From contig OY782781.1 of the NCBI GenBank assembly GCA_963678315.1, forward strand, positions 2,816,001 through 2,880,000: DNA of 64,000 bases, read 5' to 3'. How positions within the stretch are numbered: position 1 is the first letter of the stretch; every line of letters starts with the position of its first letter. Positions 24,173 to 60,905 of the stretch are shown in pieces. Both the position numbers and the translations under genes were made by a program. This DNA comes from Candidatus Cloacimonadales bacterium. GTDB taxonomy: Bacteria; Cloacimonadota; Cloacimonadia; Cloacimonadales; JAFGVF01. The notes below the pieces were generated by a model that made no database searches, was not told the origin of the DNA, and saw only the letters and a list, made by a program, of their open reading frames with translations.

Positions 24173-24465
24173 CCTAAATAATTTGACTATTTTTCGTGTT
24201 ATTCGTGCTTTTCGTGGTAAACTTCTCTTTCTACAATTAACTCTTATGTCGCCCTTTCAGGGCTTGATTTTTATTTCTAAATTACATGGGGTACAAGACC
24301 CCATGCTAATATATGTCACCCCTTTGGGGTTTTTATGGATAGCAACTCCTCAATTCTCCAATCTCCATCCATTCTGCATTCTCAATTATAATTATCCAAT
24401 AGCTCCTAACTGCCTCATTGCCCTTGCCCCTCCTGCATAAAAAGGCAATTTAATGCAGGAGGCTA
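24173..24465 (+). repeat. Composite palindromic intergenic repeat, copy B
   Basis: Colinear with 10766-11053. Confidence 0.9.
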
Positions 24466-54779: not shown

Positions 54780-54820
54780 TAGCTAAAAGATTAGACTTGT
54801 AATCTTAAATCTTGCTTTAA

Positions 54821-54981
54821 CCCATTTGATGCAGTAGGCTTCTCGTGAAGAGTGCAGATTATTTCAGCAAAATAAGTTACAGAATCGAAGTTTGAATAAT
54901 ATATATTCTAGCTGAGATTATGGAAGTTATTCTTGCCAAATAATATAGTACTATTCTAGAAGTTCTACTGTATTAGATGGG
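54821..54981 (+). mobile_element. 161-bp palindromic MITE-like element, intron-free copy
   Basis: CCCA...TGGG ends flanked by TTTAA direct repeats (54816-54820 and 54982-54986); about 85% identical (hand count 137/161) to the copy at 60829-60638. Confidence 0.75.
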
Positions 54982-54994
54982 TTTAATATTAAGC

Positions 54995-55209
54995 GCTTCC
55001 TGCATCAAATAACAAATTAATGCAGGAGGAGCAAGGGCGCATAGGCAGTATTGAGTGGGTAGTAGGACTTCAAGTTGCTAGATTTCTAATAGCATTCGAG
55101 TCAGATGCTATCCATAAAAACCCCGAAGGGGTGGTATGTATTAGCATTGGGTCTTGTACCCCATGTAAATATGAAATAAAATCCAGCCCTAAAAGGGCGA
55201 CATAAAGAG
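54995..55209 (-). repeat. Composite palindromic intergenic repeat, copy C
   Basis: Reverse complement of the GCCCT..AGGGC, CATGGGGT, ACCCCTTCGGGGT and CCTGCAT modules. Confidence 0.88.
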
Positions 55210-55300
55210 TAAAGAACAACCGTTAATCTAGAAGTTAGGAGTTTTAGTAATACTAGTTTATCCCAAGAATAATTTTTTTAGTTTCTTCTATTTTTGATAT

Positions 55301-55328
55301 AAAAAAAGGCTGACACTTGGTCAGCCCT
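55301..55328 (-). terminator. Intrinsic terminator
   Basis: GGGCTGAC-CAAGT-GTCAGCCT followed by a T-run, downstream of the C25 gene. Confidence 0.75.
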
Positions 55329-55394
55329 TCATTAATATTCAATTATGAATTACCTGCCTGTCGACAGACAAGTCAATTATTCATTAATATGATA

Positions 55395-57845
55395 TTACTT
55401 CAAGAGTAACAGTTTTTTTCTAAATGAATACTTATATGTCTTGATGTCTAAGAAATAAATAGCAGAAGATACTTCTTCATTATTATCATTTACACCATTC
55501 CAATGAACTGTGTGCTTGCCTACTTGGCACTCCTCATCTATCAATGTTCTAACTTTCTGACCTTTGATGTTATATATTTTGGCACAAACATTACTTTTTT
55601 TATCTAAGCAAAATGAAATACTAGTTGTTGGATTAAATGGGTTAGGATAAACTTGAACATTCAGTTGGGCTGGGATAGAATCATCAGCATTGCTAGTTAT
55701 ATTGACATCAAGTTCACTAAAATGGAAAGCTTCTTTGCAGTTACTATCCTCGAGCCTGTTGAGAATCACATGATTACCATTATTTAATGGAATATTAAAT
55801 TGAGAAGATACAATCTCATCACTCACTAAGCTAGAATATTCGTCCATCCAGAAGGTTTCCCAATAATAATCTGTCTCAATATCATAGCTATTCATAATAT
55901 ATTCAGTTTCAGTATTAACATTATAAATTGGACCATTAGAAGATGTTACAGAAGCTATTTGACCAATGTAACCATGAGTATCACTTCCTTCTAGTATTAT
56001 TCTTGGAACATTGTCTTGTTCGATGAAATTCGGTTTAGCTGGCAATATAAGACCAGCATCAGTAAGAGCAACAAACCTAAAATAGCCTGCTTGAATAAAT
56101 GTGTTCCCCATGTCTTGACTTGCAAGATACTTGATTTTGGCTTCTCTATATAAATCTCCCATCGTAGGATTTTCTAATTCTCTATAAGCCTCTAAATAGT
56201 AGTATATCAAAGCAAAAGTATCATTCACCCCAATATAGCTTATATTACCATGATCAACGTTGTAATCACTCATCCCATAATTTGATCTAGAACCACCAAT
56301 ATAGGCTATAGCTCCACCTTTTGAACGTATCAAGGCTTCACCAAATGATTCCCCTGCCCAATCTCCGTGATATATTTCAGTATCATAAGCTCCATTTCTA
56401 CAAGCTACTGATAGAAATATCGGTAAGCGATCTTTACTAGGATAGGATTGAACGTCCTCTACACTAATTGCTGAATTATCATCAAAATGAACAGCACCAC
56501 CAGAACCATGGGAAACATGCATCTGCCACAAAAAGTCATCATTCTTTAAATGATTAGTCATATCGCTCTCTGTAAAGTTGCCCTTAGTTTCATAGAATTT
56601 GTCAATATTATAACCAGAGAGTAAATCATCGCATATTACTTGGTTTGACATTAGCTCTCCACAGAAATAAGGTAATCCAAACGGAATACCTCCTGCTACT
56701 GCAGCATTGTACACCCAGGAAGAATCCCAAGAATCAACCCATCTTATCATCTTATGGTAATAATTACTTAACTCTTGCAAGGAAGACACGGTTACTCTAC
56801 TTGTTCCAAAATTATCTACCAGGTCATAATCTGGTGACGAATAATAGTGGTCAGAAGGAATCCAACCATCATATTCCATATCTTCAAAAGGTACAAGATA
56901 AGGGTAATAAAAGTAGTATGAAGGAGGAAGTATATGCCCTGAACCAAGCAATGTTACATTCTCTAAATATGGATGCTTACTATTATCTCTTAAGTAGGCA
57001 ATAATCTTTTTAGCTAATGAAAAATCATAGTTTTCTATATTTTGGTTTTCGGTATTTGCTATTCCAGTTAATTGAGGGTTTTCAACTTCTTCATAGCTAG
57101 AACTAATATCTTCTAAAGTTATGACATCAGTAGCAATACCATTATTACCATGAAAAGTAGCTATTGAATCTGCCACTAATGCCCATGCTTCCGGACAAAT
57201 TAAAAGATGTGATGCATTAGTCGAAGGTATATCTCTAGTATTAGTAAATTTACAGTTCTGTTTTCTTTGACCATAAATCTTGATCTTGTAATCTTTCAAT
57301 AAATAGATTTTTTGATTTTCCTGAACCCATTGAAGAGGCCTTAACTGTATAAATACTTTAGTTTCTTTCCCATCAAAACCTACACTATAACTAAACCACT
57401 TACCAGGACTAACTTCATCTGCTGATTTTGAAGCTATCATTGAAGTTGAAACTCTATTCTTCCACTTTACTTGCCTCAAGTTTATAGCTAATTTGTCTTC
57501 TAATTTTGTTTGTAAGATAGTTTGTTCAAGTAGTTCTAAACCTGTAATATCATAGTTTCCTTTAAAAGTCAAAGATATTTGCTTCTGTGGTAAGGCAGGG
57601 TTATTTGCTATTGCCTTATTCTGTAATCCTTCAAGTTTAACAACTAAACCATTTGAAGATTCTCTTACCGATAAATCCCCAAATTCTCCTGATAACTCTT
57701 TTATAGTCCCACTCCGTTCCCCTACTAAGCTTCCTATTACTAGCTCATCTGATGATTCCTCAACCTTAGTCATTTCTAAATAGTCAGCCCCAAATAAACT
57801 CATCCCCAACAAAAAAAACATGAATAATAACATTTTTCTATACAT
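55395..57845 (-). CDS. Peptidase C25 (gingipain-like) with propeptide and a FlgD/T9SS-like C-terminal domain
   Basis: Signal peptide; SDHYY, HVSHG and SVAC (His/Cys dyad), GAIAYIG motifs; YPNPFNPTT...YNIKGQKV. Confidence 0.85.
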   Translation of the reverse strand: MYRKMLLFMFFLLGMSLFGADYLEMTKVEESSDELVIGSLVGERSGTIKELSGEFGDLSVRESSNGLVVKLEGLQNKAIANNPALPQKQISLTFKGNYDITGLELLEQTILQTKLEDKLAINLRQVKWKNRVSTSMIASKSADEVSPGKWFSYSVGFDGKETKVFIQLRPLQWVQENQKIYLLKDYKIKIYGQRKQNCKFTNTRDIPSTNASHLLICPEAWALVADSIATFHGNNGIATDVITLEDISSSYEEVENPQLTGIANTENQNIENYDFSLAKKIIAYLRDNSKHPYLENVTLLGSGHILPPSYYFYYPYLVPFEDMEYDGWIPSDHYYSSPDYDLVDNFGTSRVTVSSLQELSNYYHKMIRWVDSWDSSWVYNAAVAGGIPFGLPYFCGELMSNQVICDDLLSGYNIDKFYETKGNFTESDMTNHLKNDDFLWQMHVSHGSGGAVHFDDNSAISVEDVQSYPSKDRLPIFLSVACRNGAYDTEIYHGDWAGESFGEALIRSKGGAIAYIGGSRSNYGMSDYNVDHGNISYIGVNDTFALIYYYLEAYRELENPTMGDLYREAKIKYLASQDMGNTFIQAGYFRFVALTDAGLILPAKPNFIEQDNVPRIILEGSDTHGYIGQIASVTSSNGPIYNVNTETEYIMNSYDIETDYYWETFWMDEYSSLVSDEIVSSQFNIPLNNGNHVILNRLEDSNCKEAFHFSELDVNITSNADDSIPAQLNVQVYPNPFNPTTSISFCLDKKSNVCAKIYNIKGQKVRTLIDEECQVGKHTVHWNGVNDNNEEVSSAIYFLDIKTYKYSFRKKLLLLK

Positions 57846-58067
57846 GCCATTTCTCCTTTTCCAAAACTTAGCTTACAATAGCATATTTAAGATGTAAAGG
57901 CAAGAAAATTCTTATGAGTAGTTATAATTGTGATCTGAACGGTTGATTTCTGTTAATCTATCATGAAGTAATCACATAATTAAACTTGTATAATATTTAC
58001 GGTATTTCTTTTTCCTTGCCAAATTATCTATTCATATTAGTTTTAAAAGAAAACTAAAGGAATTAGA

Positions 58068-58667
58068 ATGTCTTTTTTAGATAGTCCTGATATGGCATAC
58101 TTATTGCCAATAATAATATTCTTATCAAGAATTGTTGATGTTTCACTGGGAACACTTAGAATTATATTTGTTAATCGTGGTATGCGTTACATTGCCCCTG
58201 TTATAGGGTTTTTTGAAGTGCTAATATGGTTAATTGTTATTGGCCAGATTATGCAAAGAATTTCTAGTCCAATTAATTACATTTCTTATGCAGCTGGCTT
58301 TGCTGCAGGTAATTATATAGGTATTTTGCTAGAATCTAAGTTAGCAGTTGGACTTACCATGCTAAGAATCATTACTAGAACTAGAGCTAAAGAACTTATT
58401 GTCTCACTCAGAGAAATGGGATATCGTGTTACTCATGTTCCAGCTGAAGCGAACTCTGGTAAAGTACAAGTTATCTTCTTACCAACAAGAAGAAAAGAAA
58501 TTCCTAAACTAATAAATATTGTTCAAGCATATAACCCTAATGCTCTTTATACTATTGAAGATATGCGTTCAGTTTCTATGTGGTCTATACCAGGGACCCA
58601 ATTAAATACCAACAGAAGAGACAGACCTTATTGGAGACTTTATAGGTTTAAAAGAAAAGGGAAGTAG
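58068..58667 (+). CDS. DUF2179/UPF0316 membrane protein
   Basis: RIVDVSLGTLRI, GFFEVLIW and YAAGFAAGNYIG motifs. Confidence 0.88.
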   Translation: MSFLDSPDMAYLLPIIIFLSRIVDVSLGTLRIIFVNRGMRYIAPVIGFFEVLIWLIVIGQIMQRISSPINYISYAAGFAAGNYIGILLESKLAVGLTMLRIITRTRAKELIVSLREMGYRVTHVPAEANSGKVQVIFLPTRRKEIPKLINIVQAYNPNALYTIEDMRSVSMWSIPGTQLNTNRRDRPYWRLYRFKRKGK

Positions 58668-58687
58668 ATATTCTCTTTAGCCCTACT

Positions 58688-58724
58688 TCTACCTTTAAGA
58701 AATAGGCTTTTTCTTAAAGGTAGA
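58688..58724. terminator. 15-bp-stem hairpin after the DUF2179 gene
   Basis: TCTACCTTTAAGAAA-N7-TTTCTTAAAGGTAGA. Confidence 0.6.
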
Positions 58725-58730
58725 GTTAAA

Positions 58731-60637
58731 GTAGAGTAGAGACAGGTTTTCACCTGCCCCCCTCTTCAAACCGTGCATGCGGTTTTCCCGCACACGGCTT
58801 ACCGACAAAGTTCTTTCTAAGCTTTCACAAGTTTGTCAGGGTGTTCTGTATGCTAAGTTATATAGACCATAATACCTAATTAACTTGGCATGAGCATTTT
58901 GACGATAAAGCTTACAGCTCTTCTGACTCTTGCGTTTGTAATACCTCTTTAAACTAAAAAAGAGATATGTATTAACACTATCTTTGGCTTTAGCTGGGTA
59001 GCTTACTTTTGGTATTGTGAAGTAGTTAACCCAACCTCTTAATATGGGATTGAGTTTCTTTACTAAAGTATAATTAGATGAGTGTCCATTATTCATAAGA
59101 CAATGTTTTATATTTGCCTTGAACTTTTTGACACTCTTTTTACTTGGAATAACATTCCAGTAATAACCATACCAATTGTAAAAAGATTTATCAAACCTAA
59201 AAGTAAAACCTAAAAAGTCAAAGGATAGCTTTGTTGCATTCAAGTGTTTCGTTTTTTCCATGTTAATGGTTAATTCCATTTTCTCTAGTATTCTGTGTAA
59301 ATACGATAAGCATTCTTTAGGTATTTTATTTCCCATTAGGATAAAGTCATCAGCATAACGAACTATTTTTATGCCTCTTTTAGCGAAAAAATCCATCTTC
59401 TCTATTGACAGCTTTATCAACAAGATTTAAGTATATATTTGCTAGTAAAGGAGAAATAACGCCTCCTTGAGGTGTTCCCTTTTTACTCTTGTGCAATTTA
59501 TTCTTTTCAAAGTATGGTGCTTTTAACCACATTTTAATAAGTTTTAATACTCTTTTATCTGTTATTCTTCTTTCAACAAGATACATCAGTTTATCGTGTG
59601 GAATATTATCGAAATAACCTGATAAATCAGCATCATATACTTCTGTTTTTCCAGCCTTTAGATTAGACTTAATTTCCTTTATAGCTCCATGTGCTGAACG
59701 CTTTGGTCTGAAACCATGAGAACAATCTTCAAAGTCTGCTTCAAAGATTGGTTCTATTATTAGTTTACAACACATCTGAACAACTCTATCTTTGATAGTT
59801 GGAATTCCTAATGGTCTCATTTTACCATTTGCTTTTGGAATATATACTCGAAGTATTGGAGATGGTTTATAAGTTGCATCTTTTAGTTCTTGTTGAATTT
59901 CAAAGAGAAAGTCTGTTACTCCATATTCTTCAATATCAGAGAAACTCTTCTTATCATATCCTGCAATCCCATTGTTCAACTTCACCCTTCTCCAAGCTTC
60001 TGTTAGAAAATATCCCACTGTTAACTTATCATACAATACATAAAAACGAAAATCCTTTTCATGTTTGGCTTTAGAATATAATTTACGTTGAAAAATTCGA
60101 ACTCTTTCTTCAGCTGTTAAATCAGCCTTTCGTTTGCTTGTTAGATTTTCATCAATCACAACTTTCTCCTTATCTTGTAAATTTCTTTGAAGTAATGCCC
60201 CTTCGCTACTTTTGAGTTATGTTGTCTCAAATATCATCACTACTATGGGCATCTCCGACTGCCTAAATAACTGGATTTCACTTCGACACCGTCTTATAGA
60301 AATCCATTTAGGGTTGTCACCTCTTATTAAATAGGCTCTCTCACGTTTAATGTGCAATCGTTTATAAGCACGCCACCAGTTATAACTCCGGTAATCTTTG
60401 ATAGTGCATACTTCTGTTTCTTCCTATCAAATAGCAGGTTTCATCCTCTGGGAAAGATTAACCGATTACAATTGCCTAACGAAGCTACCTGTTCGCTTAC
60501 GCTACGGCTTACTTACCGATTCAAAGAGCTTCAAACTAAACATTACTGTATTAGTTTGTCTTTTTCACTTCTGGTTGAACAGAAAATTAACCAGACTGGA
60601 TTTTCACCAGTTGACGGCACACCACCTCGTGACGCAC
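58731..60637 (-). mobile_element. Group II intron (IIB-like AGC triad, no endonuclease domain)
   Basis: 5' GTGCG at 60637; D5 AGCCGTGTGCGGGAAAACCGCATGCACGGTT; D6 and a 3' CTAC at 58731; alpha/alpha' pair TTCTGTT/AACAGAA; boundaries confirmed by the empty homologous site at 54981/54982. Confidence 0.93.
58836..60159 (-). pseudogene. ltrA: Group II intron RT/maturase split by a +1 frameshift
   Basis: RPLGIPT, HGFRP and GTPQGG lie in one frame, YADD and the X domain in the next; one extra T in the T6 run at 59386-59391. Confidence 0.85.
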
Positions 60638-60829
60638 CCCAAATAATGCACTAGGATTTAAAAAATAGCACTATATTATTCCTGTGAGGGCGTAGCTTTA
60701 GCGAAGACTCATGGCAAGAATAACTTCCATAATCTCAACTAGAATATATATTATTCAAGCTTCGATTCTGTAAGATATTTTGCTGAAAGAATCTGCACTA
60801 TTTCCATAAAGCCTAATGCATCATCTGGG
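60638..60829 (-). mobile_element. 161-bp palindromic MITE-like element carrying a 31-bp insertion; serves as the intron 5' exon
   Basis: Homologous to 54821-54981; 192 bp = 161 + 31 (insertion at 60681-60711); TTTAA repeats at 60834-60830 and 58730-58726. Confidence 0.75.
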
Positions 60830-60905
60830 TTAAAGGAAAAGACTTTAATAACAATCTTTTAGATTTTTATCTTTTCTAAAGAGCAAAATCACTACTTCAG
60901 ACAAA

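Follow-up and report, generated by a model that had tools for sequence, protein, structure and literature searches.

A group II intron without an endonuclease that very probably homes to the outer ends of a miniature transposable element family in Candidatus Cloacimonadales

The target specificities listed for bacterial group II introns in the part of PMC4424553 that deals with them comprise homing sites, terminators and attC sites, and for the element described here the closest precedent is RmInt2. According to the relevant sections of PMC4615759, all copies of RmInt2 lie in the inverted repeats of the insertion sequence (IS) ISRm17, an arrangement that doubles the sites and guarantees that one of them is on the lagging strand; retrohoming of RmInt2 was demonstrated experimentally, with a lagging-strand bias. 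Here we report a computational analysis, made from sequence, of 64,000 nt (the window) of Candidatus Cloacimonadales bacterium (genome G000, GCA_963678315.1, contig OY782781.1, 2,816,001-2,880,000; one contig, 2.99 Mb, G+C 32.8%), in which a group II intron adjoins the terminal repeat of a MITE (miniature inverted-repeat transposable element). We consider it highly likely that this endonuclease-less intron retrohomes sequence-specifically to the outer end of the MITE family. The strategy itself is not new, RmInt2 in ISRm17 being the precedent; the present case is a variant aimed at MITE ends, and the literature on MITEs and group II introns or on Cloacimonas, supplements aside, yielded no intron that homes to the end of a MITE.

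RmInt2 (Sinorhizobium meliloti GR4, class D, IIB) resembles the present intron in lacking an endonuclease, in having its natural copies all in terminal inverted repeats of a transposable element, in finding two opposite-strand sites per element, in its lagging-strand bias and in a U-A pair between exon-binding site 3 (EBS3) and intron-binding site 3 (IBS3), as far as the same sections of PMC4615759 describe it. The target here differs in being a gene-less MITE of ~160-190 bp present in tens of copies, and the insertion falls between the last repeat base and the target-site duplication, with IBS3 outside the element; moreover, RmInt2 uses a 5-nt EBS2 (PMC4615759, same sections), whereas none was found here, and the protein gene here is frameshifted. 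RmInt1 (S. meliloti, ISRm2011-2) shares endonuclease-less, site-specific retrohoming into a mobile element, a target that extends from about -20 to about +5 and recognition of distal exon positions by the protein, but its target lies inside the IS and not in a terminal repeat, with one site per element (PMC4615759, same sections). Group IIC introns are similar in having no endonuclease and in pairing through EBS1 and EBS3; they lack EBS2, of which none was found here either, and their stem-loop foot has a likeness at seven of the ten sites studied here (PMC4424553, in the part cited above); the present intron differs in that the hairpin is dispensable at the other three, in its 6-nt EBS1 and in a reverse transcriptase (RT) whose N-terminal part scores LtrA slightly above the IIC references. 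In Pseudomonas putida KT2440 a group II intron is likewise tied to a multicopy palindromic intergenic element (REP), but only two of nine copies are REP-associated, and a base-pairing rationale is absent from the passage concerned (PMC1525189).

The intron of the window sits on the minus strand, exactly between the last base of the MITE and the 5-bp duplication that belongs to it. The arrangement, with copy B denoting the second G000 copy of the intron, is as follows.

58731-60637, minus strand: group II intron, 1907 nt, 5' GUGCG to 3' CUCUAC, delimited by Rfam, by alignment with the empty MITE, by copy B and by 8 copies in two relatives.
60638-60829, minus strand: 192-bp MITE copy, occupied; its terminal repeats are CCCAGATGATGCATTAGG and CCTAGTGCATTATTTGGG, and its last base abuts the intron.
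60830-60834: 5-bp target-site duplication, TTAAA on the plus strand, whose partner at 58726-58730 is split off by the intron.
58726-58730: second copy of the duplication, reading TTTAA on the minus strand, with which the 3' exon begins; IBS3 is its first T.
54821-54981, plus strand: empty MITE copy, 161 bp, with TTTAA at 54816-54820 and 54982-54986.

Across the two junctions (slashes) the minus strand reads ...CCTAGTGCATTATTTGGG/GTGCGTCACG...CTCTACTCTAC/TTTAACTC. A first, sequence-only reading of this DNA had placed the intron precisely at the terminal repeat, next to TTTAA, and had recognised the empty 161-bp copy; both the junctions and the alignment with the empty copy bear this out. Once the intron is taken out, the 192-bp and 161-bp elements can be aligned over their whole length, the main difference being one 31-bp indel. 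This 31-bp segment (window 60681-60711) is skipped in contigs from all four sequencing runs, which indicates that the 192-bp and 161-bp forms coexist as subfamilies.

The element is short and non-coding, with terminal inverted repeats, fixed-length duplications and many copies, and is thus a MITE by definition. BLAST revealed 39 loci in the 2.99-Mb genome and at least 41 and at least 42 matches in two relatives, so the earlier claim that the element is multicopy, and not confined to the two copies of the window, was confirmed. The arms, ~18 bp long, read CCCAGATGATGCATTAGG or CCCATTTGATGCAGTAGG, plus complements. Perfect 5-bp duplications flank 22 of the 31 two-armed copies, the intron-bearing copy being the 23rd once the intron is removed, and the duplicated words (n=22) are TTTAA (9), TTAAA (6), ATTAT (3), TTTAT (2), ATAAA (1) and ATAAT (1). 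A parent IS with MITE ends was sought in G000 by scanning 15 solo repeat ends for open reading frames (ORFs) and comparing the five largest neighbouring ORFs with Pfam; none was found, no solo end enclosed a transposase gene, and the five ORFs proved to be four housekeeping or restriction-system genes and one unrelated IS inside a MITE. G000 also contains three copies, 99% identical, of a 1.6-kb IS (G000:C1:1246915-1248524, 1667860-1669465 and 2192883-2194493), which encodes a DDE_Tnp_1 transposase and has the ends AGCATACCCCC...GGGGGTATGCT. One copy landed within the arm of a short MITE, with a ~12-bp duplication. This IS is not the MITE parent.

Recognition of the exons was traced through a consensus fold of domain I made with RNAalifold from 10 related introns (87 pairs, compensatory changes in 47), with coordinates of domains I and II converted from alignment columns. 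The elements concerned are listed here.

60341-60632, minus strand: domain I, ~292 nt, comprising subdomains a-d (RNAalifold, 10 related introns).
60447-60452, minus strand: EBS1, 5'-CCCAGA-3', terminal loop of the domain Id hairpin (covariation and consensus fold).
60383, minus strand: EBS3 (A), which pairs with position +1 of the 3' exon, the T of the TTTAA duplication (complementarity of the alignment column).
60824-60830, plus strand: unoccupied perfect EBS1/EBS3 match TCTGGG/T on the other MITE arm, on the strand disfavoured by replication according to GC skew.

EBS1 pairs with the final 6 nt of the MITE repeat (UUUGGG or UCUGGG). Among nine introns with nine different EBS1 sequences, cognate pairs of EBS1 and intron-binding site 1 (IBS1) averaged 5.44 of 6 matches and non-cognate pairs 2.89, and none of 20000 permutations reached the observed sum. 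The variants (CAGAUU, AGGGGA, CUGACA, CAGGUG, CAAAAU, CGGAUU etc.) track each intron's own 5' exon, and in further relatives at 62-80% identity the EBS1 changes match unrelated, non-palindromic targets. The EBS3 column is the sole alignment column that is Watson-Crick complementary to position +1 of the 3' exon in 9/9 introns (A-T in six, G-C in one, U-A in two). By our own reading of the alignment, the base 5' of EBS1 (delta position) does not covary with +1; the 3' exon is thus read by the EBS3 column and not by delta, which indicates recognition of the IIB/IIC kind. The proposal that CCCAGA is the exon-binding loop therefore gains support from the Id hairpin, in whose terminal loop it lies, and from covariation, and the earlier call for a domain I fold with EBS1 and EBS3 is answered by 60452-60447 and A60383. 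The other arm does carry the predicted perfect and unoccupied target TCTGGG at 60824-60829. The empty copy, ending AAATGGG and AGATGGG, matches EBS1 poorly. In the consensus fold, made from only 10 sequences, no EBS2 came to light, as none of the hairpins or loops 5' of EBS1 covaries with positions -7 to -13. The candidates UUAGG (with CCUAG) and AUGCA (with UGCAU) showed no covariation or were not conserved among the sites, and the AUGCA loop was rejected because it is invariant among introns with other targets.

Ten close copies of the intron were available from three genomes of two genera, two in G000, seven in G001 (a different genus of the same family) and one in G002; L-numbers below denote intron copies or contigs in other genomes. 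Of 201 genomes sampled from the order, 18 contain a match to the intron's first 300 nt, with at least 93% identity in only G000, G001 and G002. Copy B (genome positions 982661-984567) is 100% identical to the window copy over 1907 nt, indicating recent movement; its flanks read CTTAATGCATCATCCGGG/.../TTTAAC, the 5' exon being the complement of the left-arm end. The eight copies in G001 and G002 have ~92% nucleotide identity to the window intron. Each of the ten is preceded by a terminal-repeat-type end, ...TGCAnTAnYTGGG, followed by TT, so the expectation that other intron copies would have related flanks held throughout; TTTAA or TTAAA forms the 3' flank in nine (7/8 in G001 and G002), and 16-18 nt of sequence are common to all sites. 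Right-arm type sites hold the window copy, L001, L004 and L035, and left-arm complement sites hold copy B, L002, L003 and L006. A complete two-armed MITE with matching duplications was recovered at seven of the ten sites, by fold for L001 and by repeat search for the other six, at which the partner arm lies 159-192 nt upstream with a matching duplication. There are 588 EBS-compatible TYTGGGT sites in G000, and repeat-like upstream sequence is present at only 33 of them (4 of these being, by our own reading, loose matches), which makes a chance choice of repeat ends unlikely. In G001 a likely orthologous locus, downstream of the same 356-aa gene, contains the MITE in similar flanks with the intron absent, suggesting that the MITE preceded the intron. 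The 356-aa neighbour gene is 69% identical between the genomes and the intron 92%, a comparison of sequences that points to horizontal spread of the intron among digester Cloacimonadales. In the copy L035 (G001), the RT gene is split by a 1.3-kb ISL3-family IS (L035:1173-2500; DDE_Tnp_ISL3, E 4.7e-58), with ~33 nt of intron repeated on both sides.

Endonuclease-less introns are expected to be co-oriented with the replication fork. Cumulative GC skew places the origin of G000 at ~0.72 Mb and its terminus at ~2.0 Mb, and both copies are fork-co-oriented. In G001 the skew switches at ~1.6 Mb, with the opposite switch at ~0.03 Mb, and the five minus-strand copies (0.42-1.58 Mb) and two plus-strand copies (2.10 and 2.40 Mb) all run with the fork. 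All 9 placeable copies are therefore co-oriented (chance 2^-9, by our own arithmetic), which fits priming at the lagging-strand template, and the perfect TCTGGG/T site at 60824-60830 would be empty because it lies on the replication-disfavoured strand. The idea that the element offers landing sites on both strands thus holds insofar as both arms are used, but not as regards orientation, since 9/9 placeable copies occur only in the fork-co-oriented one.

The anatomy, the EBS1 and EBS3 pairings, the table of sites and the strand bias are shown by the sequences. They fit a mechanism in which the EBS1 loop CCCAGA pairs, at either terminal repeat, with its final six bases (UYUGGG) and EBS3 (A) with the first base outside the element, a T owing to the TTTAA/TTAAA preference of the MITE, and in which ~10 further repeat bases, constant over all sites, would also be read. 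Because no EBS2 was found, these distal bases are probably read by the intron-encoded protein, as RmInt1 and RmInt2 suggest by analogy. The intron RNA would then reverse-splice into the lagging-strand template, and nascent fork DNA would prime cDNA synthesis. With two arms per MITE, each copy would give one site in the favoured orientation, and insertion beyond the last repeat base leaves the MITE intact. If so, homing into IS end repeats, known from experiment, extends to gene-less MITEs, which are far more numerous, intergenic and always have one arm in the replication-favoured orientation. Homing to MITE ends would let an intron persist cheaply while sparing the host harm, and the natural series of EBS1 variants and targets could serve as a retargeting table for a compact endonuclease-less intron.

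Several points weigh against this reading. Conservation of positions -7 to -18 could be explained simply by the origin of the sites as copies of one repeat, and the ten sites, coming from three genomes, are not fully independent, with only two intron copies in G000 itself. The EBS1 pairing has an A.C mismatch in copy B and one mismatch each in L004 and L007. Three of the ten sites (copy B, L005 and L007) are solo ends without a partner arm, and the L007 site, which may be ectopic, needs a 1-nt indel to match the repeat, lacks a partner arm and has TTCATT as its 3' flank. For the strand bias, the G001 origin and terminus were placed from 40 samples, each a stretch of 12-20 kb, in which the skew is noisy.

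An alternative that we regard as unlikely is structure targeting like that of IIC introns, in which the intron would recognise the single-stranded DNA hairpin of the palindromic MITE and insert at its 3' base with short EBS1 and EBS3. In a 215-nt fold the arms are indeed paired up to the insertion point at seven of the ten sites, and the failure to find an EBS2, the small domain I and the endonuclease-less protein are all in keeping with it, as is a 58%-identical relative in Thermodesulfobacteriota that lies 10 nt past a GC-rich hairpin in four of five copies inspected. However, the last 15-27 nt before the insertion are unpaired at copy B, L005 and L007, where repeat-like sequence is nevertheless kept, and with three of ten sites lacking a long hairpin it is sequence, not structure, that seems to be read. 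The EBS1, moreover, is 6 nt long and covaries over its full length, and the relatives at 62-80% identity home to sites that are not palindromic. The N-terminal part of the RT also scores LtrA (5.6e-47) slightly above the IIC proteins (1.3e-44, 3.1e-41, 6e-40 and 1.6e-39) when compared with solved structures by E-value, whereas a second, unrelated G000 intron favours IIC. The earlier suggestion that the intron is programmed against the end of a multicopy element was thus supported, while its comparison with hairpin-using IIC introns proved unneeded.

A passive or reversed association, in which the MITE inserts beside introns or MITE and intron move as a composite, has in its favour that the 5-bp duplication encloses both jointly, as in a composite transposon, but is very improbable given that the 3' end of the intron lacks a terminal repeat, that a MITE landing beside the intron would leave a duplication between them and none is there, that the same intron occurs at left arms, right arms, different MITE subfamilies and solo ends, that many empty MITEs have the same duplication pattern and the likely orthologous G001 MITE is empty, and that EBS1/EBS3 pairing explains the exact junction.

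Rfam recognised the first domains as group-II-D1D4-4 (RF02003; 64.2 bits against a cut-off of 49, at 60613-60477) and domains V/VI as RF00029 (56.8 bits against a cut-off of 40, at 58802-58731), and the GUGYG 5' end, domain V triad, domain VI and covariation-supported domains I-III are those of a bacterial group II intron. Its remaining parts are as follows.

60257-60340, minus strand: domain II (RNAalifold, 7 introns).
60189-60256, minus strand: domain III (RNAalifold, 7 introns).
60156-60180, minus strand: base hairpin of domain IV, around the AAGGAG ribosome-binding site and GTG start (RNAalifold, 7 introns).
58768-58800, minus strand: domain V, AGC triad at 58799-58797 (Rfam RF00029 alignment).
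58731-58765, minus strand: domain VI, including the 3' splice site (Rfam RF00029 alignment); 58737 is the putative branch A, judged from its position.

The pairs of the domain IV base hairpin are kept in 7/7 introns, with one pair altered on one side in two of them, and the hairpin is likely the binding site of the intron-encoded protein. No class label could be obtained from solved structures, NCBIfam, plasmid tblastn, RF02003 in control genomes or the portion of Toro & Martinez-Abarca 2013 that was consulted; RF02003 gave a hit in none of the 14 control genomes, and the two nearest plasmid matches examined by tblastn are endonuclease-less genes of ~432-445 aa. Stem-loop-directed insertion with low sequence requirement, which characterises IIC, is not seen here, where three of ten sites have no stem-loop and 16-18 nt are common to all. 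The lack of any domain after GIIM together with 9/9 fork-co-oriented copies agrees with a trait of class D. The AGC triad also occurs in the second, IIC-like intron of G000 and is therefore not discriminating here.

That second intron family occupies G000:C1:2505193-2507086 (plus strand; equal to L083:1194-3087), with another copy, 96% identical, on the minus strand of L084. Its RT is 48% identical to the main one (ORF of only 339 aa) and prefers IIC structures by ~11 orders of magnitude. It sits after a GCCAGC...GCTGGC hairpin, in a REP-like hairpin repeat GCCAGC-N6-GCTGGCGTTC/CCA that is tandem in the 3' exon, its boundaries having been inferred by restoring the repeat unit. Distant relatives of the main intron (54-58% protein identity) also lie within repeats, in Terriglobia (L056, L058, L059, L061, L062, L067 and L068) and in Thermodesulfobacteriota (L023-L030). 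The Terriglobia copies have ~97 nt upstream in common, starting GTAGGACAGAC, with an inverted GTCTGTCCTAC 60-90 nt downstream in at least three. Short direct repeats with the IBS1 word at their end, such as ...ATCTGTGCTCATCTGTGTTGATCTG/ and ...CTCTGTGTTCTCTG/, make up many of the 5' exons among L216-L241 (relatives at ~79-80%, from other families of the order), and L015, L136 and L137 sit in heptamer-like tandem repeats.

The gene of the intron-encoded protein, which lies in domain IV, is divided between two frames.

59380-60159, minus strand: RT ORF1, 259 aa, fingers and part of the palm, ending in UAA (ORF list).
58836-59385, minus strand: RT part 2, in the +1 frame, with the YADD palm and the thumb/maturase (GIIM); the frame is open from 59423.
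59380-59391, minus strand: frameshift site UUU UUU CGC UAA, comprising T6 at 59386-59391, CGC at 59383-59385 and the stop at 59380-59382.

ORF1 matches Pfam RVT_1 (E 3.5e-26) and TIGR04416 (288 bits). RVT_1 and GIIM are the only domains of the protein, and only 26 residues follow GIIM, which leaves no endonuclease or DNA-binding domain; the first inspection had already called the intron endonuclease-less. In codons the site reads GGA TTT TTT CGC TAA, the remainder of the protein lying in the +1 frame. It is common to all 11 close copies with sequence there, namely the ten genome copies and the metagenome contig L133, which was independently assembled, has 91% protein identity and differs in its glycine codon (GGT TTT TTT CGC TAA). 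An exact-pattern scan of metagenome contigs for the site gave no match, and a protein-guided scan gave this one close contig. In relatives at no more than 78% identity the frame is single and continuous; the spacing from DG to RYADD is 10 residues in these unshifted relatives, and a +1 shift restores the same spacing here. Between the window copy and L001, part 2 in its own frame has 40 synonymous versus 16 non-synonymous codon differences, third positions accounting for 45 of 63 substitutions, and the other two frames give 3 and 5 synonymous versus 47 non-synonymous differences. Judged by these counts, the downstream frame is under purifying selection. Sequencing error is an unlikely cause of the frameshift, as contigs from four runs of three studies (one run may be the window's source) have no indel at the site and L133 carries a synonymous change beside it.

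Programmed +1 frameshifts occur at slippery codons that have a slow codon or a stop next to them downstream, as in prfB (CUU UGA C) and yeast Ty1 (CUU AGG C). The present site is similar in that the P-site tRNA could re-pair in the +1 frame with a slow codon in the A site, but differs in that no upstream Shine-Dalgarno stimulator was identified. CGC is rare (0.91 per 1000 codons), and tRNA-Phe might re-pair from UUU to UUC while the rare CGC, followed by the stop, waits in the A site. Our reading is of a +1 recoding site that functions; transcriptional slippage is a possible alternative, as is independent initiation in the +1 frame from an upstream TTG. We offer tentatively, as plausible but somewhat short of probable, the joint reading that the RT may be made only via programmed +1 frameshifting and that intron and MITE may be co-adapted, the 3' exon requirement of the intron being met by the MITE's own TTWAA insertion preference. 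Searches of the literature, judged by titles and supplements aside, found no report of recoding in group II intron proteins. If the reading is true, the programmed +1 site would give group II intron proteins their first reported recoding signal, a new kind of regulation of a group II RT that would throttle retrohoming. The conserved frameshift would also call for caution in annotation pipelines that call such introns dead.

Elsewhere in the window, a match to the Rfam small RNA Acido-Lenti-1 was found at 24285-24331 on the plus strand (37.5 bits, cut-off 37).

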